Assembly (NCBI GenBank): GCA_016214785.1
Contig: JACRNV010000028.1
Coordinates: 3,445-67,444 of the forward strand
From: Methanobacteriota archaeon
GTDB taxonomy: Archaea > Thermoplasmatota > Thermoplasmata > SG8-5 > JACRNV01
Length of the DNA stretch: 64,000 nt
Direction: 5' to 3'
The position numbers and the translations under genes were made by a program. The notes under the pieces were generated by a model. That model had not been told where the DNA came from. It did no database searches and was given only the letters and a program-made list of their open reading frames with translations. Below, in pieces: positions 456-61,485 of this stretch. How positions within the stretch are numbered: the first letter of the stretch is position 1; the number at the start of each line of letters is the position of its first letter.

Positions 456-2777
456 ATGGCCGCTGTAAAGTTCGTCGGCAGGTCGGTCGAGCTGGCCGCG
501 CTCAAGGCCCATCTCGACGCCGCGCGCAAGGGGGGGAGCAGGTTCGCGCTCGTCTCGGGGGAGGCGGGCGCGGGGAAGGCCCGGCTCGTCGAGGAGCTCG
601 TGGCCAAGCACGCGAAAGGGCTCATCGTCGCCAAGCACTTCACGCTCGAGAGGGAGCGCCGCGTGCCCTTCTCGGCCTTTGCCGACATCATCGCGCAGCT
701 CTCCAGGGCCGGGCACGCGCCCGGCGACGCGGTCAGGGGGCTGAGCGGGGACGGGCGGCGCTCGTCCGAGTCGCTCTCGAAGGAGCGGGACCGCCTCTTC
801 AGGGGCGTGCAGGAGTTCTTCGAGGGGCTGCCCGCATCCATTATTTTCATGGCTGACATGAACAACCTCGACGACGGCTCCACGGCCATGTTCCAGTACC
901 TCGCATCGAACATGAAGGGCGGGAAGATGCTATTCGCCGGCACGTACGCCCCCGACATGCTCGAGGACCCGACGGGCGCGATGCACCCGCTCGCCGAGGC
1001 CCTGGCCTCCATCATGGTCGAGGGGAAGGTCGCCACGCTGCCGCTGGACAGGATGTCCAGGGACGATGTGTCCAAGCTCACCGCGGCCAGGCTCGACGTG
1101 AAGTCCGTGCCGGCCAGCTTCCTGGAGGTCGTATGGAAGGTCACAGAGGGCAACCCGCTGTACGTCGTCGAGACGCTCGACGCCCTCGTGGAGCAGGGGC
1201 TCGACGTTGCCCTGAAGGACTGGGCGCGGAAGTTCGACCCTTCCAGGACGCCGATCCCGGCGAGCATCAAGGACGCCATCTCGGCGAGGTTCTCCAAGCT
1301 CGACGACAGGGAGCGCGCGGTCCTCCGGACGGCTGCGGTAATGGGGGCGGAGTTCAGGGCCGGACCGCTGCTGGAGGTGTCGGGCCTTCCGAAGGACGAT
1401 TTGCAGCAGGTCATGCAGTCGCTGGTCAGCCACAAGTTCGTCTACGAGGTCACCGAGGCAGCCGAGGAGACGTACCGGTTCGAGCATTCGCAGGTCAGGG
1501 ACATCGTGTGCGAGAGCGTCGGCGCAGACGCCAAGGGTTTGCACGGCAAGATTGCGCCTGTCCTCGAGCGGCTCGCGGGGAGGAGGCCGTTCGACGACGC
1601 GTACAGCCTCGCGTACCACTTCGACCTCGCGGACATCCACGACAAGGCTGCGATGTACGGCCTCATGGCCGGGCAGAAGGCCTTCGGGGTGAGCGCCGCC
1701 AGCGAGGGCCTGCGCTACGCCGAGGCGGGGCTGAGGCACGTGAAGCTCGTCGAGCCTTCGAAGAACAACACCTTCCTGGAGCTCAGCCTGCGCAAGCTCG
1801 CCGGCGACCTCAGGTTCCACCTCGGCGACTGGGACGCCTCGCTGAGGGACCTGGACACCGCCTTCCACCTTGCGGAGAAGGTAGTCTCCCCCGAGATGAT
1901 GTCCGCGGCCTCTTCGAGCATGGGGGACTTGCAGCGGTTCAGGGGCAACTATGAGGATGCCGAGAGAAACTTCGCGCGCGCCCTCGACATCGCGGAGGGC
2001 GCGGAGGATGCCCGTGGCAAGGCCATGGCCCTGAGAGGGCTCGGGTACTGCGCGTGGCGCACCGGCGACTACGGCGGGGCCGAGCGCAGGTTCTCCGAGT
2101 GCGTGCCCGTGGCCGAGAAGCTCGGCGACATGGCGCTGAAGGGCTCGCTCCTCCTCGAGATGGGGAACGTCCACACGTCGCGCGGGGACCTTGACGAGGC
2201 CGAGCGCAGCTACAAGTCGAGCATCGAGTTCACGGAGAAGGCCGGCGCGTTCTACGACATGGCCAGGGCGTACAACAACATCGGCGACATCTACCTCCAG
2301 CGCGAGAGGTGGGAAGAGGCGATAGGATATTTCGAGAAGTGCGCGGGCCTGGCCGATCGCCTGGGCAACAGGGACATGCTGGGGTGGGCGCACTTCAACC
2401 TCGGCGAGGCCTACGCCAAGAAGGGCGAGCTGGACAAGGCCGAGAAGGAGTGCCTCCTCGCGCTCGAGATACTGGCGAGGATGGACGACATGGTCGGCAT
2501 GGCCGGCATCTACAAGAACCTCGGCATCGTCAACAGGTTCAGGAAGGACTGGGACAAGTCCGAGGCGATGTTCAGGAAGAGCGCGGACATGGAGGAGGAG
2601 ATGAAGACCCCGCACCCGCTCGCAGAGACCCTCATAGAGTGGGGCGCCATGCGCATCGAAAGGGGCGACAAGGGCGGCGCCGCCGAGATACTGCGCAAGG
2701 CGGAGGACATCGCAGCCTCTATAAAGGCCGAGAAGCTCCTAGAGAGGGCACGCGCGGCCCTGAAGAAGGTCGGGTGA
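456..2777 (+). CDS. STAND-type P-loop NTPase (AAA_16/MalT-like N-terminus) with a long C-terminal TPR-repeat array, 773 aa. No HTH is evident.
   Basis: Walker A is SGEAGAGKARLV and Walker B is IIFMADMNNLDD. The C-terminal about 300 aa is made of repeated TPR-like units (e.g. ALRGLGYCAWRTGDYGGAERRF, MARAYNNIGDIYLQRERWEEAIGYF, NLGEAYAKKGELDKAEKECLLALEI). An RBS-like gggtg lies upstream of the ATG. Confidence 0.75.
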   Translation: MAAVKFVGRSVELAALKAHLDAARKGGSRFALVSGEAGAGKARLVEELVAKHAKGLIVAKHFTLERERRVPFSAFADIIAQLSRAGHAPGDAVRGLSGDGRRSSESLSKERDRLFRGVQEFFEGLPASIIFMADMNNLDDGSTAMFQYLASNMKGGKMLFAGTYAPDMLEDPTGAMHPLAEALASIMVEGKVATLPLDRMSRDDVSKLTAARLDVKSVPASFLEVVWKVTEGNPLYVVETLDALVEQGLDVALKDWARKFDPSRTPIPASIKDAISARFSKLDDRERAVLRTAAVMGAEFRAGPLLEVSGLPKDDLQQVMQSLVSHKFVYEVTEAAEETYRFEHSQVRDIVCESVGADAKGLHGKIAPVLERLAGRRPFDDAYSLAYHFDLADIHDKAAMYGLMAGQKAFGVSAASEGLRYAEAGLRHVKLVEPSKNNTFLELSLRKLAGDLRFHLGDWDASLRDLDTAFHLAEKVVSPEMMSAASSSMGDLQRFRGNYEDAERNFARALDIAEGAEDARGKAMALRGLGYCAWRTGDYGGAERRFSECVPVAEKLGDMALKGSLLLEMGNVHTSRGDLDEAERSYKSSIEFTEKAGAFYDMARAYNNIGDIYLQRERWEEAIGYFEKCAGLADRLGNRDMLGWAHFNLGEAYAKKGELDKAEKECLLALEILARMDDMVGMAGIYKNLGIVNRFRKDWDKSEAMFRKSADMEEEMKTPHPLAETLIEWGAMRIERGDKGGAAEILRKAEDIAASIKAEKLLERARAALKKVG

Positions 2778-2818: not shown

Positions 2819-3028
2819 ATGGCGCGCGAGATGGGGCACCTCGGCAAGTTCATAGTCCAGAAGCAGTGCAAGGACATCGGCATGGACCCCGAGGAGATTG
2901 ACGAGAAGCGCGTCCCCGAGCTCGCGAGGGCCCTGGGCAAGGTCATGCTCACCTTCGGGGGCGAGGAGAAGGCGCGCAGGATCGAGCAGGAGATCCGCAG
3001 GCTGGGAAAGAGCGAGCCGGTCCCCTGA
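2819..3028 (+). CDS. Small hypothetical protein of 69 aa, MAREMGHLGKFIVQKQCKDIGMDPEEIDEKRVPELARALGKVMLTFGGEEKARRIEQEIRRLGKSEPVP, lying 41 nt downstream of the NTPase.
   Basis: The ATG at 2819 is preceded by ggaaggtg (RBS) at a 9-nt spacing. The ORF is in the same orientation as the upstream NTPase and is separated from it by 41 nt. I recognise no family. Confidence 0.45.
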   Translation: MAREMGHLGKFIVQKQCKDIGMDPEEIDEKRVPELARALGKVMLTFGGEEKARRIEQEIRRLGKSEPVP

Positions 3029-3206: not shown

Positions 3207-3257
3207 ATGCCAAAGAAGAAGGTCGCAAAGAAGAAGGCAGCCAAGAAGAAGAAGTGA
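3207..3257 (+). CDS. Micro-ORF encoding a 16-aa lysine-rich peptide, MPKKKVAKKKAAKKKK.
   Basis: GGAGGT sits 8 nt upstream of the ATG, the TATA box at 3162-3169 lies upstream, and a T-tract (ggttttattttaa) follows about 30 nt downstream. No homolog is recognised; it could be a real micropeptide or a leader. Confidence 0.3.
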   Translation: MPKKKVAKKKAAKKKK

Positions 3258-3360
3258 CGGCTGCCTTTGGCATGCCGGGGGGAGTCTGGTTTTATTTTAA
3301 ACCCATTTTCCAGGATTTGAACGTCGCAACCTTATTATCCACAATGCGATACGCGCGCCG

Positions 3361-5340
3361 ATGGACTACGGCGAGGCTGTCCGCTACCTGTACGATTTGC
3401 AGTACCTGGGAGTCAAGTTCGGGCTCGAGAACACGGCCGAGCTGCTCTTTCGCCTCGGCGGCCCGCACACCAGGTACAAGACCGTGCATGTCGCAGGCAC
3501 GAACGGCAAGGGCTCGGTCTGCGCGCTCGTCTCCTCGGTGCTCACAGCCGCGGGATACCGGACGGGCTTGTACACATCCCCGCATCTGATAGATTTCACA
3601 GAGCGCGTCAAGGTCGACGGCAAGGCCGCTGCCAGGGAGGATATCGCCCGACTCACCGCGGAGATTATCCCGCACCTGGAGGCGATGCGCAAGTCCCCCG
3701 AGGAAAGGCTCTGCACGTTCTTCGAGGCGACGACGGCCCTGGCGTTCAAGCATTTCGAAAATGAGGGCGTGGATGTCGCCGTCATGGAGACGGGGATGGG
3801 CGGGAGGCTCGATTCAACCAACGTCATCGTCCCGGAGGCCTCGGTCATTACCCGCCTCGGCATGGACCACATGAAATACCTCGGGGGTACGCTTGCGAAG
3901 ATAGCGCGCGAGAAGGCAGGCATAATCAAGCCCGGCGTCCCGGTCGTCAGCGCCGCGCAGGAGGGCGACGCCCTGCACGTCATTCGGCAAACCGCCGCGG
4001 AGCGAGGGTCGAAGCTTCGCGTCGAAGGGATTGATTTCCATTGCTCGCGCAAATCCTTTGGCATCGGAGGGCAGCGCCTTTCGTACAGGGGTTCGAGGGG
4101 GAGGCCGTTCGATGTCGATATCTCCCTGCTCGGCAAGTTCCAGGTCGAGAACGCCGGGCTGGCGCTGTGCGCCATCGAAGTTCTAAGAGAGCGGGGATTC
4201 GGCATTCCGGACGGCGCGATCCGCAAGGGCATGAAAGGCGCCAGGTGGCCCGCCCGCCTGCAGGTTGTCAGAAAGAATCCGCTCGTCGTCGTGGATGGCA
4301 TGCACAACCCCAACGCCGCTCAGGCGGTGGCCGACAGCTGGGGCGAGGTCTTCGGGAAGCGGAAAGTGAGACTCGTCCTCGGCATAATGGCAGACAAGGA
4401 CTACCCGAGGACGGCCAGCACAGTCTCGTCGAAGGCGAGCATGACGATAGCCACCGCCCCGGCGTTCCAGCGCGCGCTCCCGGCGGACAGGCTGGCGAGG
4501 GACATAGGCGCCGCAGAATATTACGATATCCCAGCGGATGCGATAGTCTCCGCCATCCGCGGGGCCGGGGATTCAAGCGCCGTCCTCATCGCGGGCTCGC
4601 TCTACCTTGCCGGCGAAGCGCTCATGTTCCTGGGGGATGCACCGCCGGACTCGGTCGACGTCTTCGAGCGCCTGCAGAAAGAATATTCGATCGGCGCGTT
4701 CCCCGGCCACGACGTCGGCGGGAACGAGGCCGTCGAGCCCGGCGGGCGCGAGCCGTTCCATGTTTTGATTTCAACGATACTCTCCCACCGGACCAGGGAC
4801 GAGAACACGCACAGGGCGTCGTCGGCGCTCCTCGCCAGGTACGGGACGCCCGAATCGCTCGCGAAGGCGCCCGTCGCGGAGGTTGAGCGGCTGGTGCGCC
4901 CTTCCGGGTTCTACAGGATGAAGGCCCGCTATGTCAAGGCGGCCGCCAAAGCCGTCGTCGATGACTTTGGCGGCAATGTCCCGCGCGACATCGGGTCGCT
5001 GATGGCCATCCCCGCCGTCGGGCGCAAGACCGCCAACTGCGTGCTTGTCTACGGCTTTGGCATACCGGCGATTCCCGTGGACGTGCATGTGCACAGGGTC
5101 TCGAACAGGCTCGGCCTCGTCAAAACGAAAACGCCCGACGATACAGAAACCATCCTAGCAACCGTCGTGCCAAAGTCCCTCTGGATAGACATCAACAGGC
5201 TCCTCGTGCGCCACGGCCAGGAAGTCTGCCAGCCTCGGAGGCCGCGCTGCCCGAAGTGCGTGCTGAGGGGCGTATGCATGCTTTGGCGGAGGGAATCTCT
5301 CCCCGTTTCGCAGAAGAAGAAGGGAAAGGGAGGCCGGTGA
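3361..5340 (+). CDS. Bifunctional fusion of a FolC-family (Mur-ligase) folylpolyglutamate synthase / dihydrofolate synthase-like N-terminal domain (about aa 1-420) with a C-terminal endonuclease III (Nth, HhH-GPD with [4Fe-4S] cluster loop) domain (about aa 435-659).
   Basis: N-terminal FolC motifs are YLYDLQYLGVKFGLENTAELLFRLGGP, HVAGTNGKGS (P-loop), YTSPHLIDFTERVKVDG and ETGMGGRLDSTN. C-terminal Nth motifs are FHVLISTILSHRTRDE, the HhH-GPD region PAVGRKTANCVLVYGFG...VDVHVHRV, and the cluster loop CQPRRPRCPKCVLRGVC. The frame is continuous with no stop. There is an internal in-frame ATG at 4624 at the domain junction. Confidence 0.7.
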   Translation: MDYGEAVRYLYDLQYLGVKFGLENTAELLFRLGGPHTRYKTVHVAGTNGKGSVCALVSSVLTAAGYRTGLYTSPHLIDFTERVKVDGKAAAREDIARLTAEIIPHLEAMRKSPEERLCTFFEATTALAFKHFENEGVDVAVMETGMGGRLDSTNVIVPEASVITRLGMDHMKYLGGTLAKIAREKAGIIKPGVPVVSAAQEGDALHVIRQTAAERGSKLRVEGIDFHCSRKSFGIGGQRLSYRGSRGRPFDVDISLLGKFQVENAGLALCAIEVLRERGFGIPDGAIRKGMKGARWPARLQVVRKNPLVVVDGMHNPNAAQAVADSWGEVFGKRKVRLVLGIMADKDYPRTASTVSSKASMTIATAPAFQRALPADRLARDIGAAEYYDIPADAIVSAIRGAGDSSAVLIAGSLYLAGEALMFLGDAPPDSVDVFERLQKEYSIGAFPGHDVGGNEAVEPGGREPFHVLISTILSHRTRDENTHRASSALLARYGTPESLAKAPVAEVERLVRPSGFYRMKARYVKAAAKAVVDDFGGNVPRDIGSLMAIPAVGRKTANCVLVYGFGIPAIPVDVHVHRVSNRLGLVKTKTPDDTETILATVVPKSLWIDINRLLVRHGQEVCQPRRPRCPKCVLRGVCMLWRRESLPVSQKKKGKGGR

Positions 5341-5341
5341 T

Positions 5342-6394
5342 GTGAAAATCGAGTCTATCGAATTACGGCTGCTGGAGCTTCCAAGGCGCGAGCGCTTCGT
5401 CATCGCGACCGGCTCTTCCGACGTCGTGCGCAACTGGCTCGTCAAAGTCACAGTCGATGGTTCAACGGGGCACGGGTGCGCCGCTCCCAACAGCGTCACG
5501 CGCGAGACTGCCGAGGGCATCGAGACATCTCTCCTCAGGCTGCGCGACAGACTGCAGGGGCACGAAGTCGATGGCCCAACCGACCTGAGCAGGCGGATGG
5601 ACGAGGCGCTCAGCCGTGCATCCGCCGCGAAAGCCGGACTTGACCTCGCCTTCCATGACGCGCTTGCAAGGGGAAAAGGCCAGCCACTTGCTGAATTCCT
5701 GGGCGGGAAATGCGGGCCAGTGCTTACAGACATGACGATAGGTATAATGCCCCTTAAAGAGACGGTAGAGAAGGCCCGAGCCAACGTGAGCAACGGTTTC
5801 AAGGCGCTGAAGCTCAAGGTCGGCACGTCGATGAAGGACGACGTCGCGCGGGTGCTCGCGGTGAGGGCGACCATCGGAGAAAGCGTGGCCCTGCGCATCG
5901 ACGCCAACCAGGGATATTCGGAGAGGAAGGCGCTACGGTTCATAGAAGCAATCAAGGGCGCGGGCGTCGAGCTTGTCGAACAGCCCGTGAAGGCGGCCTG
6001 GTGGAACCCGATGGCGAGAATCTCTGCCGCGTCTCCGATACCTGTGATGGCCGACGAGACCGTGCGTTCGTTCGAGGACGTTGAGCGCGCGTTCGACCTC
6101 GGCATATCGCACATCAATGTCAAGCTCGCGAAGTGCGGGGGCATCCACCAGGCCCAGCGCATCGCGGAGCTCGCGAGAGAGCGCGGCGGGAAAATCATGG
6201 TCGGCTGCATGGGCGAGTCTGGGATATCGCTGGCGGGTGCGCTGCACTTCGCGTCGGCTTACAGCGACGTCGTGAGATGGGCCGACCTCGACTCCCAGTT
6301 CATGCTCGTCAGGGACGGGTGCAGGCCGCTGGACTTCAGGGACGGCATGCTGTGGCCGAAGGGGCCGGGGAACGGCGCAGAGTTACAAAGTTAG
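5342..6394 (+). CDS. Enolase-superfamily (mandelate racemase / muconate lactonizing enzyme family) protein, probably a dipeptide (L-Ala-D/L-Glu-type) epimerase or o-succinylbenzoate synthase-like enzyme. It has a GTG start overlapping the upstream stop.
   Basis: It has the KxK motif (ALKLKVG), metal-ligand-region motifs (RIDANQGY, VELVEQP, MADE) and the overall MR/MLE barrel pattern. The GTG at 5342 sits in tGAtGTG. Confidence 0.6.
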   Translation: MKIESIELRLLELPRRERFVIATGSSDVVRNWLVKVTVDGSTGHGCAAPNSVTRETAEGIETSLLRLRDRLQGHEVDGPTDLSRRMDEALSRASAAKAGLDLAFHDALARGKGQPLAEFLGGKCGPVLTDMTIGIMPLKETVEKARANVSNGFKALKLKVGTSMKDDVARVLAVRATIGESVALRIDANQGYSERKALRFIEAIKGAGVELVEQPVKAAWWNPMARISAASPIPVMADETVRSFEDVERAFDLGISHINVKLAKCGGIHQAQRIAELARERGGKIMVGCMGESGISLAGALHFASAYSDVVRWADLDSQFMLVRDGCRPLDFRDGMLWPKGPGNGAELQS

Positions 6395-6454: not shown

Positions 6455-7504
6455 TCACAGCATTTTCCGAATTGCCTCGACGAGCTTCCCGCACCCTTGC
6501 CAGAGCGGGTCGCACGCCGGCAGGCCGTACTTCTTCTCCCATTCCTCGGCAGTTCGCTCGACCTCCCCCCTCGTCATCTGCTCGTGGTTGATCGTCAGCG
6601 CGACGACCTTCGAGCCCGAGAACGCCTCTATCAGCATCCTCTCTCGCTCGATGCCGGCCATCGGCAGCTTCAGCTCCGGGTGGTAATTTCGGGTCGTGCG
6701 CTTCGGCGCATGCTGGAGGACTATGCCCGAGGGCGCGCTCGCCGCCATTATCGCCCTGCTCCCGCACACGTAGGCCGGGTGCGACGCCGCGCCCTGCCCC
6801 TCGACGACTATGACCTGCGGGCTCTCCTGTTCGTAGGCTGCCATTATAGCGTTCTCGAGCTCCCCCACCATGTAGTCCCCGGGGATGGAATCGAGGGGCA
6901 CGCCGTACCATGCGCCCTGCAGGAGCCCTGTCTGGCCCGTCGCCACGAGAACGGCCTTTATCCCCGCCTCGTTCAGTGCGTCCACCAGCTCCCAGGCGCT
7001 CGTGCGCTTGCCTATCGCGCTGTCCGTGCCCAGGATGGGGATGCGCAACGCGCCGATGTGCCTCGCCCTGTCGCCGAAGGGATGCCTCTTATCGAGCGGC
7101 GGAGGCCGCCGGATGTCAGTGAGGGTCGCGCCATGCTTCTTGGCAAGGGCTTTGAACTCCTCGTCGTCCGAAAGGTACTCGTGAAGCCCCGACACGACAT
7201 CGATGCCCCGCACGAGCGCATCGGCAATCACCGGCCTGAACTCGGGCGGCAGCTTGCCGCCGACAGTGGCGACGCCGATGATGAGGCACTTCGGCTTGGT
7301 GTTCGAGAGCGCGTCCGCCACGTCCCTGAAGATGGGGATGCCATTCTTTTCGCCATTGAGGGACATCCCCGCGTCCTGGCCGGTTTTGGAGCTGTCGATG
7401 ACGCCGACGATGCGGTACTTGTGGGACCTGCGCACGAGGCCGTTGGCCGTCTTGCCGGTGGTCGTTCCGAACTTCCCCTCGCAGAGTATGAGGGCGTCGA
7501 TCAT
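6455..7504 (-). CDS. DUF1611 (COG3367) family protein, convergent with the epimerase gene.
   Basis: The translation from M20 of the ORF is MIDALILCEGKFGTTTGKTANGLVRRSHKYRIVGVIDS... This is a Rossmann-like N-terminus followed by a conserved C-terminal domain, typical of DUF1611. The upstream in-frame 19 codons were rejected. Confidence 0.55.
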   Translation of the reverse strand: MIDALILCEGKFGTTTGKTANGLVRRSHKYRIVGVIDSSKTGQDAGMSLNGEKNGIPIFRDVADALSNTKPKCLIIGVATVGGKLPPEFRPVIADALVRGIDVVSGLHEYLSDDEEFKALAKKHGATLTDIRRPPPLDKRHPFGDRARHIGALRIPILGTDSAIGKRTSAWELVDALNEAGIKAVLVATGQTGLLQGAWYGVPLDSIPGDYMVGELENAIMAAYEQESPQVIVVEGQGAASHPAYVCGSRAIMAASAPSGIVLQHAPKRTTRNYHPELKLPMAGIERERMLIEAFSGSKVVALTINHEQMTRGEVERTAEEWEKKYGLPACDPLWQGCGKLVEAIRKML

Positions 7505-7725
7505 CGGGGGGTATATGGAGATGCAAATATGAAAGTTAGCGCTAATCTCACAAGTGGGCACCTAGAACATATCATTTCTAAGTTCAAAATATGAGAAAAT
7601 GGAGATTGGTTTGTGTGGAATTTCAGGACATTTCCATATATCGATGTCTTTATATATAACAAGTCTTATACCTAATACGACAAATATGTTTACCAACACA
7701 AACGTAGGTAAATGAGGTCGTTGAT

Positions 7726-9155: not shown

Positions 9156-11477
9156 ATGGAAAAATCAAGAGAAATCGTAACCGCCATGAAGTGGGGCCCC
9201 GGGCAGGACGCCTTGTCCGCCAAAGCACGAGCAAGTCTCTTTGTGGGAAAAAGTAGAAAAGCACTCCTTGAAAAGTTTTTATTGGAATTAAAAGAATCGG
9301 CAAAGAGCAGAAGCATACAACACTATCTCGTTATAGGAACACGCGGAATGGGGAAATCGTTCTTCCTGTCAATCCTCTACGACAAGGTAAAAGAAGGGCA
9401 TGCTGGCGACGTGTGGGTTCCCATCAAAACCATGGAGAACGAGGATCAAATTACGAGCGCGCAGGCATTCATGGCTTCGATTATGAGATATCTGGGCAAC
9501 ACTCCTTTGAGCGGGGCTGTGGAACTCGCAAATGACATCCACAGAATAAAAGACGAGAATACTGCGGTTCAGCAGGCGACCGAACAGTTAGAGGAACTGT
9601 GCAAGAAAAATAAAAAAAGGATTTTGCTCCTAGTAAACAATTTCGACGAGATATATGAGAATATGTTCAAGGATACATCTAAGGCCGCGCTACGGGGAAT
9701 TCTCCAGCAACATTTCTGGCTCAAACTGATAGGTACAACCCGCAATATTACATTCTTAAAATTACTACAGGAAGAATACGAGGTTGAACTTTTCGGACAA
9801 CTATCTACCGAGGAGCTAGAACAACTCAGCGGGGATGAAGTTATTACGCTTCTCTATAAAATAGCCGAGGTTGAGGGCGATAAGGAAGTTTTAGAGAAAA
9901 TAGGTAGCGCCGAATGGCGCGAACGAAGGGTTAATGCAAAGGCTCTTGCAGAGCTGTGCTGCGGCGCGCCAAGAATGATTTACGTCATGTATCCATTTAT
10001 CGTGGAGAGCCGAACCGAAAGCGGACTGACCGTACTTCACAAGACGCTCGACGATCTAACGACTTACTACGAAGCGCAACGAATGTACCTTTCATCGCAA
10101 GAGCGGGCTGTTTATTCGGTCATCGCAAAATTAAATGGAAGTGCTTCTCCAAGCGAAATCGCGGAGGAGCTCCATATGGACATGAATGTTCTGAGCACTT
10201 ATTTAGCCCGATTGCAGGATAAAGATTACATTGAGAAGGTCCACGCTGACAGCGCAGATGCTCGAATCGTTCGATACCAGATACCAGATAAGATTTATGT
10301 CGTCTGGTATCAGAAGAATTACGGGGCGAAGGACGCGCGGTACAAGTGGCTGGTGGAGTTCTATAAAACAGCGTACAGCGCAGAGGAACTGGAACATGGC
10401 GTGGGCGAGCCGGAGGCTCCAGAGATCGTGAGAGAGAGCAAGCTCCGGGCGCTGTCGGAACTGAAGGCGCAGGTCTCTCAGACGATGATAGTTGAAACCG
10501 TACCAGAAGATAAAGAGTTAAGCGAATGGAACGCTGCCTTAGATAAAGGGATCGAAGCCTACCAGAAAGGAAAATTCAACGATGCTTTGTCAGAATGGAC
10601 AAGAGCCCAGAAAGCATGTGAAATCCTTGTGAAGAAATACCCCGATAATTTAATGTATCAGGAAAAACTGGCAGGATCCTTAAACAATCTAGGCCTCTTG
10701 ATGAATGACATGGGTAGATTTTTAGAATCGCTAAATTATAAAGAACGCGCACTAGCATTGTTCGAAGCATTATTAACCAGAGATCCAACGAACGCACGTT
10801 TTCAATCCTCTGTAGCTATGGCTTTGAACAACCTCGGCAACTTGTTGAGCGACCTCGGGAGACGGGAAGAGTCTTTGAAGCGCTACGAGTCCGCGCTTGA
10901 GATGAGAGAAACTTTATTGAACAGTGATCCAAAAAATATAAACTATCAATCAAGCGTCATAGGAACGACTACGAATCAGGTAGACCTTCTCACTACTATA
11001 GGAAGGCATCGCGATGCCATTAGGACTCTGGACGCGGCCATACGTATAATTCCAGAAAATCACGAATTGCTCCTCCTGCGCTCCTCGGCCAATCTCGCCT
11101 TGCAAAATGATGGGCTCGCAAGGGACGACCTCCGAGCCGCCCTTAATCTTCTCGAAAGCAAAGGCAATGGAGAATTTTTGACCGAGATACACCCTGCGCT
11201 CCTCTCGTACCTGAGGCATGGAACGCCCGGTTTTACCATTGAGGCTATCAAGATTGTCTGCGCGGTATTTGGGACGTCGCTGGAGGATGAGAAGGCAAAG
11301 CCATTGATCCCTTTCAAGATGGCCGCAGAGTTCCTGGCGTCCGACCGCAGTTCAGGCACGCTTTTCAATCTCGACCCGTTGACGCGCGATGCCACATACA
11401 AAGTGCTGCGCGATTCCGGTCATGAAGGGGATATCGAGGCACTGAATTACAAAGGGAAGCGGAAGAAACGGAAATGA
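9156..11477 (+). CDS. STAND-type P-loop NTPase (archaeal-ATPase-like), 773 aa, with a central winged-helix domain and a C-terminal TPR array.
   Basis: Walker A is VIGTRGMGKSFFLS and Walker B is ILLLVNNFDE. The wHTH-like segment is SPSEIAEELHMDMNVLSTYLARLQDKDYIEK. The TPRs include NLGLLMNDMGRFLESLNYKERALALFEALL and NLGNLLSDLGRREESLKRYESALEM. The RBS ggaggg is 6 nt upstream. Confidence 0.65.
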   Translation: MEKSREIVTAMKWGPGQDALSAKARASLFVGKSRKALLEKFLLELKESAKSRSIQHYLVIGTRGMGKSFFLSILYDKVKEGHAGDVWVPIKTMENEDQITSAQAFMASIMRYLGNTPLSGAVELANDIHRIKDENTAVQQATEQLEELCKKNKKRILLLVNNFDEIYENMFKDTSKAALRGILQQHFWLKLIGTTRNITFLKLLQEEYEVELFGQLSTEELEQLSGDEVITLLYKIAEVEGDKEVLEKIGSAEWRERRVNAKALAELCCGAPRMIYVMYPFIVESRTESGLTVLHKTLDDLTTYYEAQRMYLSSQERAVYSVIAKLNGSASPSEIAEELHMDMNVLSTYLARLQDKDYIEKVHADSADARIVRYQIPDKIYVVWYQKNYGAKDARYKWLVEFYKTAYSAEELEHGVGEPEAPEIVRESKLRALSELKAQVSQTMIVETVPEDKELSEWNAALDKGIEAYQKGKFNDALSEWTRAQKACEILVKKYPDNLMYQEKLAGSLNNLGLLMNDMGRFLESLNYKERALALFEALLTRDPTNARFQSSVAMALNNLGNLLSDLGRREESLKRYESALEMRETLLNSDPKNINYQSSVIGTTTNQVDLLTTIGRHRDAIRTLDAAIRIIPENHELLLLRSSANLALQNDGLARDDLRAALNLLESKGNGEFLTEIHPALLSYLRHGTPGFTIEAIKIVCAVFGTSLEDEKAKPLIPFKMAAEFLASDRSSGTLFNLDPLTRDATYKVLRDSGHEGDIEALNYKGKRKKRK

Positions 11478-12078: not shown

Positions 12079-12834
12079 CTATGCCTTCTTCCTCCTCGCT
12101 ATGAGGATCATCCCGATGAGTATCGCGGCGACTGCGACCGCCAGCACTACGCCGTAGAACCAGTCGAAGCCTTCCTGCTTGAGGTAGAAAGTCTTCGCGG
12201 TGTAGATGTCCCCCGAGCCCGGGGATACTACGCCGTCGCCGTCAACGTCCCCCTTGATGACCAGGGTGTGCGCCCCGGCCGGAGGGTTGGCCACTATCCA
12301 GTCGGCGGTTATGTTCGTGCTCTGGCCGGCGGAAATAGAGATCCTCTGCGTATCCACGAGCACATCATCGATATATATTTGGACGGGGAGGCTGTCTATG
12401 TTAATCTTGGAGGGGTTTTCTACCTGGCACGAGACGCTCAGAGGCTGGACGACCTGGATGGTCTTGACCGCGTCGCGCCATTCCGTGCCTTTCGAGACGT
12501 TCACGTAAAGGTCGACCGCGCCCTTGACGCTCGGCGCGGTGACGTTTATCAGCACGGACGTCTCGGTGACGTTCCCCTTAAGGGGCGTGTTCTTGGTCGG
12601 CGTCGCGTTGGTGGTGTTGCCGTTCGTGAAGTACGCCTCGTACTTCCAGTCCGGCCCCTCGGCGCCCACGACCAGTACCTTGTACTCCCCGGACTTGTTC
12701 AGCCCCAGGGCGTTCGGGCCCTCGATGTAGACCCGGATCGTGGCATTGCCGGCCGCATGGGCCGCGCCTGCCTGGAGGAGCGTCATCGACAGGAGCGCAG
12801 CCAGCGCCACCGACGCCAGGAGCCTCCCGCTCAT
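12079..12834 (-). CDS. Secreted, C-terminally membrane-anchored surface protein of 251 aa, extremely rich in N-glycosylation sequons. It is translationally coupled to the upstream AglB-like gene by an ATGA overlap.
   Basis: It has a signal peptide (MSGRLLASVALAALLSMTLLQAGAAHAAG), at least 12 N-x-S/T sequons, and a C-terminal TM helix plus RRKKA. The start ATG at 12834 overlaps the AglB stop TGA at 12831-12833. Confidence 0.65.
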   Translation of the reverse strand: MSGRLLASVALAALLSMTLLQAGAAHAAGNATIRVYIEGPNALGLNKSGEYKVLVVGAEGPDWKYEAYFTNGNTTNATPTKNTPLKGNVTETSVLINVTAPSVKGAVDLYVNVSKGTEWRDAVKTIQVVQPLSVSCQVENPSKINIDSLPVQIYIDDVLVDTQRISISAGQSTNITADWIVANPPAGAHTLVIKGDVDGDGVVSPGSGDIYTAKTFYLKQEGFDWFYGVVLAVAVAAILIGMILIARRKKA

Positions 12835-15800
12835 CCGACCCACCTCCGGCGCTTGGCGATGTAGTAAAGCACGAGCACAATCGCTACCACAATGGCGGCT
12901 GTGCCGATGCCCTGAAGCTGTGCGTCCCACGGCGTCTGCGCCGTGACGAGGTCGCCCTTGACCTCCACCATCTGGACGTCGGCCGACATGAGCGGTACGG
13001 AGACGTCGAGCAGCGAGCGGGCGCCGTCCGGGTCGTCCAGCGACTTGCCGACAAGTTTTACGACCACTCCGGGCTCCGCATCGGCCCTGGCCTTCTTGAG
13101 GGTGAACCGGACCTCCTTGAACTCGCCGCCCTTCATCTGTGCCACAGTGGCCGTCGTGTTGTTAATCGTCCAGCCGACCGAGGGCTCCCACGAGAAGGTC
13201 CAGCCGAACCTTGCCAGCTCCTCCTCGTTCAGGCACGTTACCGAGCAGTTGTCGGGGCCGTTGCCTCCGTTGGTCATCGAGACGCCGAAGGAGACGTTCG
13301 AGCCCGAAACCGTTGGCGGGCTCGGGGAGAGGAAGGTGCTGACAGTGTAGTTGTGGTAGATGGGAACGTCTAGTGTCTTGGTGATGGACGCCGTCGAGCC
13401 GATGAGCTTGGACCTTGCGAGTACGTTGATCGGTGTGTGGTCGGTCTTCGCGTCAGCCGGGATGGTTATGACGGCGCGGACTGGCATGGACTCGCCGGAT
13501 CCTAGGGAGATCTGGCTCAGGTTGAGCTTGACGTCCCAGGTCGGCTCCTGGGATGTGGAAAGTGTGTATGTATCAGGGACGTTTCCCTTGTTGTTGACGT
13601 CAAAGGTGTAGATGGCCTCGCTGCCCTGCACGAATGTCCGCTTCTGGGCGGTGTCCCACACTATCTCGACCCCGTAGGTCTTCTCCTTGGACAGCTCGCT
13701 GCTCAGCCTCGTCGACCGGCTCATCTCGGCGGTGCTGCTCATCGAGTACGGGACCGTAATGCCGCCTTCGAGAACGTCGAGCGTTGCCGCGACTTCGTAC
13801 GTGGCCTGCGGCAGCCAGGTCTCGAAGTACCCGAGGCTGTCGGCGCTCAGCTTTCGCTCGACGCCCAGGAACTTGATGGATATGGACGCGTTGTCCGCCG
13901 GCGTCCCGGCCCCGTAATACAGGTTGCCGGAGAGCTTGAAGGCCTCCGTTGCCGCGAGGGCCAGTTCCGTGCCCTCCCTCGTCAAATTGAACGCTCGCAG
14001 CAGGCCCGCGCGCTCGTCCGGGGAGGCGAGATATGCCACGTAGCTGCCGGGCGCCAGCTCTGTCTGGAAGCTGCCGTTCGCGCTGAGATTGGCCTGCGAC
14101 GATATTCCGCCACCGCCCGAGGCGAAAAGCTGCAGGGCCGCGCTGGCCGGCGCCGCGAGGCCGCCAACGGCGCCTTTGACGGAAGCGTTGACTATGTCGC
14201 GCTGCGCGCGAACCGGGACGAACTGGCTCCCCACGGAGGCCGTTACGTTGTTTGTGACCCCCTTGTAATGGTATTCGCGCTCGACGCTTCCGTCGGTTGA
14301 GTTCTGCTTGAAGTCGCTCGTGAAGTTGTAAGTCTGGCGGGTAGGCAGGTAGAGCTTGAAGTCACCCGTCTCGTTGTCCGTGACGGCCGAGAAGGTCGCG
14401 CCCGTCTTTGCCTCGATGGCGCTTACCGGGACGTTCTTCATCTTGGCGCCCTGGAAATCGACGCTCCCCGTGACGAGCGAAGATTCGTTCAGGGCCACCG
14501 TTACGTTGCCTGCCGTCGGGACGAAGAAGCGCTCGTACCCGGTGACAACCGTACCGTTGGTGCCCGCGACCGCCGTGGCCGTGTAATTCCCGCCCTTGAG
14601 CGAGATCACAGTTTCGCCGAGGGCCGAGAGAGACAGGCTCTCCTCGCCGGTGAACGTATAGTTTGTGATATGTTGCTGGCCCGCCATCGCCGCGCTGACA
14701 TTTACGAGATACCGCATCTCGGCCAGCAAATCGATCATCACGGGCTCTTCGCTGAGGCCGAGCCGCAGCCCAAGGCTGCGCTCCCTGAGCTCGTACACAA
14801 CGGTGTCGCTGACCTTGAAAGACAAAGTGAGGTTATATTCGGCCGGGGGAAGTTCTCCGGAGTACGCATTGCCGATTATCGGCATCTCGTATACCTCCTT
14901 GCTGAACAGCCTCTCGGCCACAACCTTTCCGCCGTCCAGGGTCGTCCCGTCGTTCGTCCTCACACCGCCCGAAACGGATATGCGCCGGGGCGAGAGGTCG
15001 AAATACCAGTACACCGCATTCTCCGGATTGCGAGACATGGGCCGGGTCTCATCCGTATATGTCATTGATGCGTAGCCCGGGGAGTAGGCGGTCATCGTCG
15101 GGTTCTCGCCCAGGTACTTGACGAGGAACCGGCCACTCAGGTCGGTATATATATCTCTCGTGCCTGCCGCATCGACGACCTGGCCATAGCCTGGCAGCCC
15201 CTCTCCCTCGTCGAAGGCGCCGTTCCGGGTCGTGTCGTTGTAGATGATTCCGCCGTATTCCTGGGCGGCGCCGACGTCGACTTCGATTGTCGTGGTGGCC
15301 GCGCTGACTGACACGCGCTGCTTCATGCCGAGCCATATCGCGCCGAGGTCGTCGTTCATGACCGTGACGTTGTACTGCCCGTACGGGAGCAGGGCCGTGA
15401 AGCGGTCCGCCGGGTTGGTTCTGGTGTAGAAAGTGCCGCTCCCCTCTATCTGGACTTTGGCGTCGGGCGATGGCTCGAATGAGCCGCCTGTCAGCAGTCT
15501 CCCGTTCAGCCTGCCCGCTGGCTGCAGGGCAACGTCGATCGAGACTGCGTCGGTGACTCTCAGGTTGCCCAGGTACGCGAACTCCGAGCCGGACACCTCC
15601 CTCGATGCATATACGGAGTAAAAGCCGAAGGGAATCCTGTCTTCCAGCTTGCCAGCCCCGTCGGCGAAGAGCATGACCGACCGCTTCGGATCGTTGAGGT
15701 TCTGGAATGTCACGGACAGATTGGCCGCGGGCGCGCCCTGTATCGTGGCCTGGACCGTGAGCGGCGCTGCCGGATAGACCGTGATGTTAAGCGTGGAGTT

Positions 15801-18800
15801 GGTCAGCTTGCGCACCTCGATCGGCGCCGGGATGCTCCAGTAGTTGCCCGAGGATGCGCGGTAGGTGTAATTCCCGACCACCAGGGAGACGTTGAAGTTT
15901 CCGCTGCCGTCCGTGATGGCCGATTCGACGTTGTGGCCCTGGCTGTCGGTGATGTTCACCAGCGCCTGCCCGATCCCGAAATTGAGCTCGTCCGCGACGT
16001 GGCCCGAGAGGTTCACCGGCGTCGTCCCGATGTTCTTGACGAACCCGGTGTTGCTGTAGGTCACAGACACGGAGTCCTCCGAGGCTATGTTGACGCCGTT
16101 GTACGTGACAATGAGCCGGTAGTTGCCCTGCGCCATGCCTGGTATGGAGTAGTTGCCCGCGCTGTCGGTCTTTGCGGCGTAGCTCATGTTGAACGCAAGC
16201 GCGCCATAGTCCAGGTCGGCGCCGGGGAGCGTGGTCTCATCGGGGTTCCTGTTTCCGTCCCCGTTGCTGTCGATGTAGACGATTCCAGACACGTTCGCGG
16301 GCTCGAGGACCGGGCTGTGGGTGATGATGTAGTCGGGTATGCCGTTCCCGTCCAGGTCGAGCTGCTCGCGCATGGCCTGGTCGTCCCTGATGAACATCTT
16401 CGTGTTGTTGAGCTCGGTGCCGACCATGGTCATCTTCAGCGGCTCTCCGGACGAGACGATTATCGAAACGTTGCCCATGGGCGCAAGGAGCGAGTACCTG
16501 CCATCCGAGTCCGTCAGGACCGAGTCGTGGGGTATCTGGTACATGTCCTGCACGGTCACTCGCAGGCCCTCCACGGGCGGCCCGCCCCTGAGCCTTATCT
16601 GGCCCTGGACGATGGCTCCGTCGTAATACTTCAGCATGTTCACGCCCTGATAAAGGCTGGACTGCGTAGACAGGTCGACGACGCCCTCGGCCTCGCCAGC
16701 CTGTATCTTGGCCTGGAGGGCGACAGCGTCGTCGTAGTTCATGGCCGTCCATGCGTCCGTGTGGTTGCGCACCTGTTCCATCGGGTAGGGGTTGTAGTAT
16801 GCAGTGCGGTGGAATATCCTGAAATTCTTCATCATGTAGCCCGGCATCGCGGGCTGGTTCTGGAGGCTCCCGGAAAGGCCTGGTATGCCCGAGTCGTTCG
16901 ACTGCCCCACGTCGGGGCCCGAGTATCCGATGAAGCACTTGTAGAGCATGGTCTTGTAGAACATGTCGTGGTACACTAGCTTGTAGTCCGTGATTTGAAC
17001 ATCTTTGGGAACGTCGTTGATGTCGTATTCGCCGCCGTACTCTCCGACCCCCTTGATCTCCCAGAAGTCGTAGGGCATGTTCGGGGTCTTTATCCTGTGG
17101 TCGGATAGCTTGGCCGGGGCGTAGAAGATGCCGGTGTTGTCGGCCGAGAACGGGAAGAGCCTGCTGTCGACTGCGAAGTACCTGATGCTCTTGCCGGTGG
17201 CGTCCCTCAGGTCGTGGTACAGGCCTGTTACCTGCGTCTGGTTCATGCTCATTGAGATTATGGCCATGGCCTTCAGGATCCTCGCGTTCTCGTCCTGCAC
17301 CCTCGAGTCGCGCGGCCCGTATATCTCGGGGTGGGCGAGTATCTCGGCCTTGTAGTTCTGCGGGTTGCGGAAGGCGTCGTCCACGGCAGCGGGGTCAATG
17401 TTGTATTTAACGAGGACATCCCTCACTCCGGGGCTGAATGCCATGTCCTTCTTCTCGGTGTACAGCGGAGCGTACCAGTCTCCCTGCAGTAATCTCATGC
17501 AGAACAGGGATATCGCGTTGGACTCGTTCTGCGCCATCAGGAAATTGCCCGCGACGTTGTGCCCGCCAAGGAAGTTGTCCGCGACCGTGGGATGCTCCCC
17601 CTGGTTGATGACCTCGAACCCGTAGTCCCACCAGCTTATGAACGCAGGTCGCTCAGAGAACGGATATGTGCCGTTGTCCTGCGTGGCGAGCCAGCGGTAG
17701 GCAGAAGGCCAGTATCGATTGTTGAGCGGCATAGAGTAACCGTGCCCTCCGAGGTACCACGTGGACCCGTTAACTTCGTCGTATGTGGCCGATGCCGTGA
17801 ATGAGGGCATGACCTGGTAAAGCCTCTTGTCGTAATCGGTCTTGACCTCGTAAGGCATGCCGCCGTCCAGCCCTGCCCAAACATTGGGGACGACGACCAT
17901 GAACGCAAGGAAGAGGACGCCAGCCACCACCCGCACGCGCGTTTCCCTCATTATGAAGAACAGGACGCCCAGATAGAACGCCGTTATGACCGGCACCCAT
18001 GCGTGGTCCACCGTGCGCTTGAAGCCGGAATAGTAGGCGATGTAGAGGGCCAGCGCCACCAGCAGCGGTATCATCGCCGCCAGGTAGTACCTGTCCTTTG
18101 CCCTGAGTCCGTAGGTGTACAGCATGAAGAGGATCACCAATACCGCGCTGACGCCGAGCGCGACCGGCGCGAGGTTGTTGAGGTAGTAGTACCCGGCGAC
18201 CGCGCCAGCGATGGCTAAGCCCATTGCGAGCAGCGCCACCATTATCCCACTGGTGCCGAAGATGGTCGCGCCCCTGAACCTCGACTGGCGCGATATCTCG
18301 CCCTTCAGGTCGAGCTTGTCCAGGAGCATCGCGATGACCCATCCGGCCATTATTGCGAAACCGGGCGCGGCGTTGAACATGAAGCGGGCGGATATCACGG
18401 CCATGTATATCGAGAATATCATGAGGAGGATGATGAAGATGAAGTCCGGCTTGAGCTTCTTCGGCAGCTGGTAGAGGCCGAGGCCCAATCCCGCGATGGA
18501 GAGCCAGAACGTGATGAGGCCGAACGAGGTGGCGAGGTTGCTGAAGGGCGGAGCCTGCGCCTCGGCGATGGTCTCGTACTGCTTGCTCGTGATGAAGTAG
18601 CCGCTCGCGCTCGCAATCTTGTCGACGAGCGAGCCGTACAATGTCGGGCTGGCCACGAAAATCGCCGCGACGGCGATGACTGCCAGCAGGGCCATGGAAG
18701 CAAGGACCAATGTCCAGGGGTATTTCCGGGTGAGCATCAGGATTGCGGCTATCCCGGTCGTGCCCAGGTAAATGTACCCGGGCAGGTCCCACCACCCGGC

Positions 18801-20928: not shown

Positions 20929-21585
20929 ATGGATGTAGATATCAAGCATGCAATGCGCCCCTACGTCATCATCAACTGCGCCTCCTCCGCGGACGGCAAG
21001 CTCGCGTTAAAGACCAGAAAGCAGACGCGCATCTCCTCCGAACAGGACATAGAGCGCGTCCAGAGGCTGCGCGCGAGCTGCGACGCCATTCTCGTGGGCG
21101 TCGGAACCGTCCTGGCGGACGACCCATCGCTCCTCGTCAACCCCAAGTTCATGACGGGGGGGAAGCAGCCGATTCGCGTCGTCCTCGACTCAAGGCTCAG
21201 AACACCGCCTTCGGCCAAGGTCCTCTCGGGGGGCGCCAAGACGATCATCTTCGTCTCCGAAGGCCACAGAGGCAATCAGAAGGGCGCCGATGTCGTCGAA
21301 GCCGGAAAAGGCCCTGTGGACATCGGCGCCGCGCTCGCCCACCTATCTAGACTGGGGGTACGGCGGCTCATGGTCGAGGGGGGCGGCACGGTCATATGGT
21401 CGTTCCTCCGAAGCGGGTTCTGGGACGAGCTCAAGGTCTTCGTGGGCTGCATCGCGCTCGGCGGCGGCGGGCCGACCGTGGCCGATGGCGAAGGCGCGGC
21501 CAGCCTTGCCGGGGCTGTGCGGATGAGGCTTGCCAAATCCACGCCCATGGAGGGCGGCATACTGCTGGAGTACGCGCCCGCATGA
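20929..21585 (+). CDS. RibD C-terminal-domain reductase (archaeal 2,5-diamino-6-ribosylamino-4(3H)-pyrimidinone 5'-phosphate reductase-type, COG1985).
   Basis: YVIINCASSADGKLA...RVQRLRASCDAILVGVGTVLADDP...RLMVEGGGTV matches the DHFR-like RibD-C fold. A strong RBS ggaaggaagg precedes the ATG. Confidence 0.65.
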   Translation: MDVDIKHAMRPYVIINCASSADGKLALKTRKQTRISSEQDIERVQRLRASCDAILVGVGTVLADDPSLLVNPKFMTGGKQPIRVVLDSRLRTPPSAKVLSGGAKTIIFVSEGHRGNQKGADVVEAGKGPVDIGAALAHLSRLGVRRLMVEGGGTVIWSFLRSGFWDELKVFVGCIALGGGGPTVADGEGAASLAGAVRMRLAKSTPMEGGILLEYAPA

Positions 21586-39691: not shown

Positions 39692-39804
39692 TGGTCCCGA
39701 CTCCCGGATTTGAACCGGGGGCCTGCTGATTTCAGCGACCGAGCCGGCCTGCGCCGGTTCTCATACTACAGTCAGCCGCTCCAGCCAGTCTGAGCTAAGT
39801 CGGG
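39692..39804 (-). tRNA. tRNA-Tyr (anticodon GTA) with a 35-nt intron at the canonical 37/38 position and a genomically encoded CCA end.
   Basis: Hand-folded, the acceptor stem is cccgact/agtcggg (7 bp), the D-stem gctc/gagc, the anticodon stem gctga/tcagc with loop ctGTAgt, the T-arm cccgg-ttcaaat-ccggg, the discriminator a, then cca. The intron is tatgagaaccggcgcaggccggctcggtcgctgaa. Confidence 0.7.
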
Positions 39805-61362: not shown

Positions 61363-61485
61363 GATATCACGCCTCTCGCAATCGCGCCGTGGCATAAATC
61401 CTTTGCCCAACGTGAGCTGCGCAATCGACCGAAAAGCATTTATCGACCCACCAGGTTTGCAGCACGCACATGCCGGAGGGCTAAG

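Follow-up and report, generated by a model that had tools for sequence, protein, structure and literature searches.

A single reading frame joining FolC and endonuclease III-type modules in Thermoplasmatota is a genuine, conserved and recurrent gene fusion

Introduction

Does one archaeal gene encode both a folate enzyme and a DNA repair enzyme, or were two neighboring genes merged by mistake? This question is raised by an open reading frame (ORF), here called folC::nth, that lies in a 64,000-nucleotide stretch of contig JACRNV010000028.1 (assembly GCA_016214785.1, positions 3,445 to 67,444), assigned to a Methanobacteriota archaeon of the GTDB phylum Thermoplasmatota. The whole stretch was analyzed and is referred to as the window. 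The ORF begins as a folylpolyglutamate synthase (FPGS) or dihydrofolate synthase (DHFS) of the FolC family and ends as an endonuclease III (Nth). A first-pass annotation, made from the letters of the sequence, offered two readings, a genuine bifunctional protein or a sequencing or assembly error, and remarked that folate metabolism and base-excision repair (BER) are not an obvious pairing. Both are textbook enzymes, and we know of no described link between folate polyglutamylation and BER. The results given below demonstrate that the fusion is genuine, evolutionarily conserved and recurrent.

Results

The fused frame is continuous and conserved in independent assemblies

Inspection of the sequence over the whole folC::nth ORF revealed no internal stop codon. 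The G+C content at third codon positions (GC3) was 0.74 to 0.90 in the ORF's own frame over its full length, junction included. Because this signal is continuous across the junction, a frame switch at this position is not indicated, and the earlier reading of a single 659-aa ORF without a stop was upheld. The predicted product matched GenBank entry MBI5000732.1 at 100%, a record deposited as "hypothetical protein HZB92_04295 [Euryarchaeota archaeon]." Analysis with Pfam predicted three domains, Mur_ligase_M (residues 44 to 271), Mur_ligase_C (299 to 413) and HhH-GPD (470 to 604), all above their gathering scores. The five motifs quoted in the first-pass annotation were all located (Table 1), and its description of a complete FolC module followed by a complete Nth module was confirmed by the domain profiles and by the retention of all catalytic residues.

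Searching for proteins with the same architecture revealed FolC plus HhH-GPD in 49 of the best 120 database clusters (90% identity). These proteins were 42 to 61% identical to the window protein, had lengths of 560 to 694 aa and mostly covered 97 to 99% of the window protein. They originated from independent NCBI, JGI, ENA and Logan assemblies, and the names, where given, were Thermoplasmata, Candidatus Thermoplasmatota or Euryarchaeota archaeon. An exhaustive HMMER search of 1.84 billion cluster representatives at 50% identity revealed seven full-length and two partial fused proteins, down to 37% identity. In the clade of the window protein itself (P0001 to P0005, 55 to 61% identical, from NCBI, JGI and Logan), all five members were fused. 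The span across the junction was 61 aa in four of them and 50 aa in P0002, which carries an internal deletion, and the motif P-P-(D/E) was common to all. Thus, the BLAST check for the same fusion in relatives that had been proposed earlier gave about 49 clusters from independent assemblies. Many orthologs are split, but they are not uniformly two separate genes. Of the two initial readings, a genuine fusion was supported and an assembly error was effectively excluded.

The two modules are joined without a novel linker

The segment between the modules had been interpreted as a 40-aa linker, and the comparison with split relatives did not bear this out. An AlphaFold2 (AF2) model of the fusion, built on the alignment, reached a mean predicted local distance difference test (pLDDT) value of 87.5 and a predicted TM-score (pTM) of 0.77; a Foldseek search revealed no solved structure spanning both halves of the model. 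In this model, the last helix of FolC is separated from the next helix by five residues, DAPPD, and this next helix opens a segment that belongs to Nth (Table 1). The motif Y.(I/V)GA(F/Y)PG was conserved in the segment after the junction, and G445 was invariant in 29 aligned fused proteins. The stand-alone Nth proteins of loci L090, L113 and L114 open with the same motif (L090 N terminus, MDYGEMIKRLKEEFDVGAFPGKN), and 28 residues precede the aligned core in the stand-alone Nth structure 9nzc. The distance from GS[IL][YF] in FolC to ..LIST in Nth was 58 to 63 aa in the fused proteins; adding up the matching ends in split pairs gives the same length. The Nth N-terminal motifs, GAFPG or RYLPxGD..TALAKI, occurred in the fused and split states alike; the junction sequences differed by clade, each clade having its own version. 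Because the residues after position 430 match the native N terminus of stand-alone Nth, the fusion places an entire Nth directly behind an entire FolC; the junction comprises no more than five residues, and no novel linker has been added.

The FolC module resembles a genuine folate enzyme

The NCBIfam folC profile TIGR01499 matched residues 22 to 421 over profile positions 1 to 397 of 400 with 373.5 bits, compared to a cut-off of 162.65. Residues 1 to 424 aligned end to end with the structure 1o5z (7e-77), and in the comparison with FPGS from Lactobacillus casei (1fgs, 3.5e-73) residues 1 to 419 of 428 were covered; alignments to solved FolC/FPGS structures extended to residue 420 to 424 or thereabouts. 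The FolC part of the AF2 model superposed on the FolC structures 1o5z, 1jbv, 2gca and 1w78 with TMt values of 0.88 to 0.92 (Foldseek), and the two-domain fold was recovered. Since the first 208 residues or so align with 1fgs ungapped, the residue numbering is the same as in L. casei FPGS. Residue S73 of the fusion thereby falls at the position mutated in PDB entry 2gc6 (S73A). Residue invariance was scored in the alignment of the 29 fused proteins, which are 42 to 61% identical. In addition to the FolC motifs listed in Table 1, His170 was invariant. Lys185 occupies the position of the carbamylated Lys185 of L. casei FPGS, with the catalytic role generally assigned to it, and the P-loop, the Ser-Pro pair, Glu143, Asp151 and His170 presumably also act as in FPGS enzymes in general.

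The characterized FolC/FPGS proteins from Thermotoga maritima (TM0166, 1o5z), L. casei (1fgs/1jbw) and Escherichia coli (1w78) share with the fusion the P-loop, S73-P74, E143, K185 and the motifs of the C-terminal domain. These enzymes are stand-alone proteins of about 420 to 440 aa, whereas the C-terminal helix of the window FolC leads into the Nth module after five residues. Analysis of genomic localization revealed purH, encoding the folate-dependent AICAR transformylase, immediately upstream of folC in three fused or related loci (L082, L086 and L175), and a gene for a pterin-binding protein near folC in L086. The position of purH supports a normal folate role of the FolC module. In this context, the module looks like a genuine folate enzyme that would use ATP to add L-glutamate to dihydropteroate and/or tetrahydrofolates; its activity may be that of DHFS, FPGS or both.

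The Nth module is most probably an endonuclease III-type enzyme

The HhH-GPD profile PF00730 matched residues 470 to 604 with 90.3 bits (gathering score, 26.2). The NCBIfam nth profile TIGR01083 matched residues 463 to 630 with 185.1 bits, which is below its equivalog cut-off of 211.7. Because the stand-alone Nth of locus L084 scored 184.5 bits against the same profile, the low score reflects the archaeal subfamily rather than the fusion; the module is therefore called endonuclease III-type rather than a proven equivalog of E. coli Nth. Its closest structure was the stand-alone 209-aa endonuclease III 9nzc (6e-48). The Nth part of the AF2 model gave a TMt of 0.82 against 1orp (Foldseek). K556 aligned with the lysine that was mutated to alanine in PDB entry 9nzd, and this lysine, the aspartate and the four cluster cysteines were invariant (Table 1).

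Comparison with the Nth structures 9nzc, 1orn/1orp from Geobacillus and 2abk from E. coli (E values of 6e-48 to 2e-32) revealed a shared HhH-GPD fold, the catalytic lysine and aspartate, the cysteine motif and the N-terminal helix. The window Nth differs from them in that its N terminus is tethered to FolC and in carrying the traits of the archaeal subfamily, LISTILSQRTRDENT, KTANCVLVY and an N-terminal GAFPG. These features suggest that the module is most probably a DNA glycosylase/apurinic-apyrimidinic (AP) lyase of the endonuclease III type. No second nth was found within the 64-kb window.

The fusion is derived from overlapping neighboring genes

Relatives with separate folC and nth genes were found in several Thermoplasmata loci. 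In L084/L085, an unfused FolC (P0052), 48% identical to the window FolC module, precedes an independent gene for a 241-aa Nth, and a gene of the MR_MLE family comes next; the ATG of nth overlaps the stop codon of folC in an ATGA arrangement (GGGAATGAGG). In each of the 18 split pairs analyzed, the folC stop and the nth start either overlapped by 4 to 32 nt, in the ATGA form in five pairs, or were separated by no more than 16 nt. The gene order folC-nth-MR_MLE, as in the window, was present in L084/L085, L089, L090, L130 and L166. The split operons of Thermoplasmata (L084, L087, L090, L093 and others) therefore carry orthologous genes in the same order, often with the same downstream MR_MLE gene. 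They encode two polypeptides, and the N terminus of their Nth is the very segment that had been taken for a linker in the fusion. In the most divergent split group, of the L093 type, the names of the relatives were Thermoplasmata, and the flanking genes for methylmalonyl-CoA mutase and alanyl-tRNA synthetase were not diagnostic.

In L087, folC and nth overlap by 23 nt. The 505-aa FolC of this locus (P0050; with its Nth, L087 2158-4321) was considered as a frameshifted fusion. This was rejected, since folC ends in a stop codon of its own and a separate ATG for Nth lies 23 nt ahead of this stop. The extra length of P0050 comes from an N-terminal duplication in which the first 100 residues or so occur twice (tblastn matches at L087 2158-2466 and 2416-3639). 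In the Nth of this locus, a histidine replaces the second cluster cysteine (C-x6-H-x2-C-x5-C).

A metagenome scan anchored on Nth returned at least 80 loci, of which 61 had enough upstream sequence to be evaluated. Among the matches listed, 20 of these 61 had FolC as the immediate upstream neighbor, co-oriented but in a different frame, and no fused locus was sampled. A scan of GTDB species representatives with the fused alignment gave, among the matches listed, only unfused and mostly bacterial FolC loci, which were reused as a control for adjacency. None of these 80 unrelated FolC loci had an adjacent nth; in two of them, nth was located about 5.5 kb away on the opposite strand.

Neighbor-joining trees were built separately for the FolC and the Nth modules; both recovered the same major groups, and the pairwise distances were correlated (r = 0.82). 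Because the two trees recover the same groups, folC and nth have been inherited together. The fused proteins formed at least four groups (A to D) that were interleaved with split groups. Since they are interleaved in this way, each with its own junction sequence, the fused or split state has changed several times; the trees are distance trees without support values and do not fix the exact number of changes. The simplest reading of the changes would be repeated fusion, because one indel at the overlapping stop/start suffices; fission instead of repeated fusion is possible. The comparison indicates that the fusion is derived from adjacent, overlapping folC and nth neighbors.

A reversed pairing occurs in bacteria

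The exhaustive search also revealed a 694-aa protein (P0134) with the reversed domain order HhH-GPD, Mur_ligase_M, Mur_ligase_C. It was encoded unchanged on six contigs, which derived from no fewer than three sequencing runs, and two further proteins (P0273 and P0274) with the same architecture were 79 to 81% identical to it. The genomic neighborhood of P0134 is bacterial, with valS and genes for CbiA-like, SPOR-domain, RseC, Rex-like and multihaem cytochrome proteins, and its nearest unfused FolC relatives were named Bacillota, Clostridia or Limnochordales. In unfused bacterial relatives (FolC 66% and 57% identical), the gene order was valS, HhH-GPD, folC, the glycosylase gene being separated from folC by 1 nt or overlapping it in an ATGA. 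Among the bacterial loci L168 to L174, the longer order valS-nth-folC-cbiA-like-SPOR was also seen. The bacterial glycosylase was closest to the DR2438-type model and was 37% identical to the archaeal Nth module.

The bacterial proteins (P0134, P0273 and P0274; loci L168 to L173) thus carry the same two families on one chain, with the lysine, the aspartate and the cysteine motif intact, and like the archaeal fusion they are derived from tightly abutting neighbors, in this case valS-nth-folC. They differ from the archaeal fusion in the opposite order, in the DR2438-like glycosylase, in a long linker of 25 to 45 aa of low complexity and in forming a narrow, young clade (at least 79% identical). 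The FolC and Nth families have thus come to lie side by side, and later to share one chain, on at least two independent occasions, which differ in domain of life, gene order and Nth subtype. The earlier remark that the pairing is not an obvious one stands, yet the pairing recurs, and in bacteria it does so in reverse.

Other domain fusions of FolC were also encountered. Four proteins of 796 to 893 aa (P0127, P0128, P0132 and P0138) and two of 667 to 681 aa (P0152 and P0223) were tandem FolC-FolC proteins or combined FolC with a CbiA/ParA-like P-loop domain, and the same CbiA-like gene was positioned directly downstream of folC in L168, L171 and L173. FolC-FolP fusions are known from haloarchaea, and their partners share a pathway; MutY combines an Nth-family core with a NUDIX-like domain, and both parts recognize the same substrate. 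Cores of both the FolC and the Nth family thus enter domain fusions readily. In contrast to the FolP and MutY examples, which stay within one pathway or substrate, FolC and Nth belong to two pathways between which no link has been described.

Features of the fusion gene and its surroundings

The coordinates of the fusion gene, its motifs and its immediate neighbors are collected in Table 1.

Table 1. Location of folC::nth, its modules and motifs, and adjacent features in the window (invariance refers to the 29 aligned fused proteins)
Feature	Residues	Position in window	Strand	Basis or remark
Candidate archaeal TATA box, A/T-rich TTTTATTTTAAA		3290..3301	+	About 60 nt upstream of the start codon; read from the sequence, promoter role inferred
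folC::nth fusion ORF	1-659	3361..5340	+	659 aa; ATG start, TGA stop; coordinates include the stop codon
FolC module (folylpolyglutamate/dihydrofolate synthase), complete	1-425	3361..4635	+	TIGR01499 and structure alignments
P-loop HVAGTNGKGS, ATP binding	43-52	3487..3516	+	G46, G49, K50 and G51 invariant
YTSPHLIDF, omega-loop with S73-P74	71-79	3571..3597	+	T72, S73, P74, H75 and L76 invariant
ETGMGGRLDSTN, Mur-ligase Mg/ATP site	143-154	3787..3822	+	E143, G145, G147, G148, R149, L150, D151, T153 and N154 invariant
Lys185 in EKAGIIK	185	3913..3915	+	E184 to I188 invariant; ungapped against 1fgs over 105-208
In-frame ATG (Met422), inside the last FolC helix	422	4624..4626	+	Not conserved as a start
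Junction DAPPD	426-430	4636..4650	+	Five-residue break between helix 414-425 and helix 431-441 (AF2)
Native Nth N-terminal segment	431-462	4651..4746	+	Helix 431-441 (confident), Y-S-I-G-A-F-P-G, low-confidence loop 445-456
Endonuclease III core (HhH-GPD and [4Fe-4S] cluster loop)	463-640	4747..5280	+	Profiles and structure matches
Helix-hairpin-helix PAVGRKTANCVLVYGFG, catalytic Lys556 (GRKTAN)	551-567	5011..5061	+	K556, T557 and A558 invariant
Catalytic Asp574 (VDVH)	574	5080..5082	+	V573, D574 and H576 invariant
[4Fe-4S] ligands C623-x6-C630-x2-C633-x5-C639, CQPRRPRCPKCVLRGVC	623-639	5227..5277	+	All four cysteines invariant
Basic C-terminal tail	641-659	5281..5337	+	Poorly conserved, variable in the alignment; pLDDT <50 at 648-659
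Enolase-superfamily gene, L-Ala-D/L-Glu epimerase/DgcA-like		5342..6394	+	GTG start 1 nt after the fusion stop; best NCBIfam matches, to L-Ala-D/L-Glu epimerase and the N-acetyl-D-Glu racemase DgcA, below curated cut-offs
DUF1611/DgcN-like gene		6455-7561	-	Convergent with the enolase-superfamily gene; matches below curated cut-offs

Upstream of folC::nth, a terminator-like hairpin (3274-3290) is followed by a T-run to position 3299, and this T-run overlaps the candidate TATA box. A tiny lysine-rich ORF (MPKKKVAKKKAAKKKK, followed by a stop codon) is located just upstream of both elements at 3207-3257 (+), and a 67-codon ORF at 2825-3028 had no Pfam match. Downstream, a Shine-Dalgarno (SD)-like GGGAGG at 5328-5333 lies within the tail codons of the fusion, ahead of the enolase-superfamily gene. 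The DgcN/DgcA-like pair, possibly involved in the salvage of D-Glu to L-Glu, adjoins a glutamate-adding ligase. Apart from folC::nth, just one gene noticed in the window is possibly connected with pterins or folate. It encodes a RibD_C-family reductase of 218 aa at 20929-21585 (+), about 15 kb from folC::nth; the RibD_C family includes dihydrofolate reductase-like proteins.

The other genes of the window are typically archaeal, among them those for the small subunit of replication factor C, aIF2-gamma, aIF5B, an archaeosine tRNA-guanine transglycosylase and an STT3-like protein. A 2333-aa ORF at 12831-19835 (-) has an N-terminal region resembling the oligosaccharyltransferases STT3/AglB, followed up in the same chain by CarboxypepD_reg and Ig-like domains. 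An Rfam match (50.3 bits) revealed a 110-nt, probably intron-containing tRNA at 39695-39804 (-); ARAGORN reported no tRNA in the window. STAND-like AAA_16 plus TPR proteins and TPR-only proteins are encoded at 456-2777 (+), 9156-11477 (+) and 58838-59974 (+), and AAA_16/TPR genes were also found near the fusion in L081 and L082. Long ORFs with low GC3 (0.44 to 0.64) are located at about 7.6 to 11.5, 28.1 to 31.5 and 43.3 to 46.2 kb, the GC3 of the window being 0.8 to 0.9 otherwise. They include genes for an AAA_14 protein, a 1016-aa NosD/beta-helix protein and a 973-aa M28 peptidase. The composition of these stretches suggests that they may have been acquired horizontally. A second apparent fusion, a 725-aa ORF for an AdoMet synthase at 60505-62682 (+), was rejected: the domain covers only residues 330 to 719, the first 329 codons or so look like wrong-frame sequence, and the true start is MKRNIIVETLN.

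Discussion

We consider it probable that folC::nth encodes one polypeptide with two autonomous enzymes, which arose when the stop codon of folC was lost where it overlapped the start of nth. According to this model, an ancestral operon of Thermoplasmatota would have contained folC followed by nth, with the start of nth overlapping or abutting the stop of folC and with translational coupling between the two. A small indel would then have removed the folC stop and joined the frames end to end, and because overlapping genes would be joined in this way by stop loss, a junction of at most five residues without an added linker would result. The product would be a single polypeptide of about 72 kDa, consisting of an ATP-dependent FolC and a [4Fe-4S] endonuclease III-type glycosylase/AP lyase. 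Both parts would keep their usual jobs: FolC would glutamylate the folates used to make purines and thymidylate, and Nth would excise damaged pyrimidines. The fusion would do no more than tie the repair enzyme to a housekeeping gene in obligatory 1:1 coexpression. As far as the sequences suggest, both modules would be expressed as a single chain and be active, and there would be no cross-talk between them.

Several observations weigh against parts of this model. The score of the Nth module below the equivalog cut-off leaves room for a substrate range that may differ from that of E. coli Nth. The absence of cross-talk is called into question by the persistence of the folC-nth linkage at deep divergence (FolC identity of 31 to 48%), by the repeated fusion events and by the independent, reversed nth-folC adjacency and fusion in bacteria; the pTM of the model may, moreover, reflect a defined orientation between the domains. 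The points on cross-talk also argue for the alternative that the fusion couples folate-cofactor supply functionally to BER, which we regard as possible and distinctly less likely than two autonomous enzymes. The folC-to-nth overlap was retained across very divergent Thermoplasmata, the fused or split state changed several times, and the Bacillota-like valS-nth-folC arrangement, with its 1-nt gap or ATGA overlap and its reversed fusion, involves a different Nth subtype. The lack of any adjacent nth at the 80 unrelated FolC loci listed and the tightness of the archaeal junction point in the same direction. Such coupling might take place at the DNA, where the folate cofactor for thymidylate synthesis would be supplied where pyrimidine lesions or uracil are repaired, or FolC might be modulated by the redox-active [4Fe-4S] glycosylase module or by the binding of this module to DNA; the influence might also run in the opposite direction. 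On the other side, no known biochemical link between folate and BER was found in the literature outside subscription journals; among the matches listed, 41 of the 61 evaluable Nth loci of the subfamily had no upstream FolC; and in L086 folC is not directly followed by nth. The long low-complexity linker of the bacterial fusion fits independent modules, and repair genes are often located in housekeeping operons without a common function. A stronger form of this idea, that the linkage of folC and nth is a selected module coupling folate polyglutamylation, and thereby thymidylate and purine supply, to pyrimidine BER and is not due to operon inertia, is in our view rather doubtful. Such a module would be loosely analogous to the de novo thymidylate synthesis that is recruited to eukaryotic replication and repair sites; as a variant, the redox-active Fe-S glycosylase module might report DNA or oxidative status to FolC.

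The remaining explanations have little to recommend them. A separate Nth could also, or mainly, be made by internal initiation at the ATG at 4624 (Met422) or nearby; the first-pass annotation had allowed for independent Nth expression from this ATG. The ATG does exist in frame and is positioned 4 to 10 codons upstream of the starts of stand-alone Nth in split relatives, so that its product would be a full-length Nth. However, Met422 is unique to the window protein, the other 28 of the 29 aligned fused proteins having F, R, A, S, V or other residues, and it varies even within the clade of the window protein (F in P0002, R in P0003, A in P0004 and P0005). No methionine is conserved anywhere in the junction, which has none at all in five of six members of clade D and in several members of clades A and B, and no SD-like motif was seen in the sequence upstream of 4624. 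The proposed independent expression is thus improbable. Even less credence is given to the idea that one module is no longer an enzyme, Nth being a DNA-binding or Fe-S sensing appendage or FolC an inactive scaffold. The Nth score and the histidine in the cluster motif of the split relative L087 could be cited for it, but the 29 fused proteins show no variation at any catalytic or ligand residue of either module, and both modules are full length and confidently folded in the AF2 model. The least likely explanation, and a scarcely credible one, is that the fused ORF of the window is a sequencing or assembly artifact, such as a 1-nt indel merging two overlapping neighbors. The source is a metagenome-assembled genome (MAG), and since split relatives differ only by a frameshift at the ATGA-type overlap, a single indel error could mimic the fusion. 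Such an error is contradicted by the fused state of all five members of the window clade, four of them with the same junction length, by the 49 or so fused clusters overall, by the unbroken coding signal and by the preservation of the junction residues as protein sequence.

Two autonomous enzymes on one chain thus remain the account that we prefer. What is new is the domain architecture and the gene linkage; both component enzymes are well known, and the sequences are public. No description of the FolC-Nth architecture was found in the full-text literature outside subscription journals, including the main comparative-genomics paper on folate gene fusions. Public databases misannotate the family under the labels "hypothetical protein," "Mur ligase family protein" or just "FolC." Because Nth is missing from these annotations, metabolic reconstructions of Thermoplasmatota MAGs overlook the repair function. 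As a clear case from nature, the family also illustrates how overlapping genes of the ATGA type become fusion proteins, possibly in both directions. Since the pairing of FolC and Nth has been kept across an archaeal phylum, has been fused several times and has arisen in reverse in bacteria, the two activities may be needed together.

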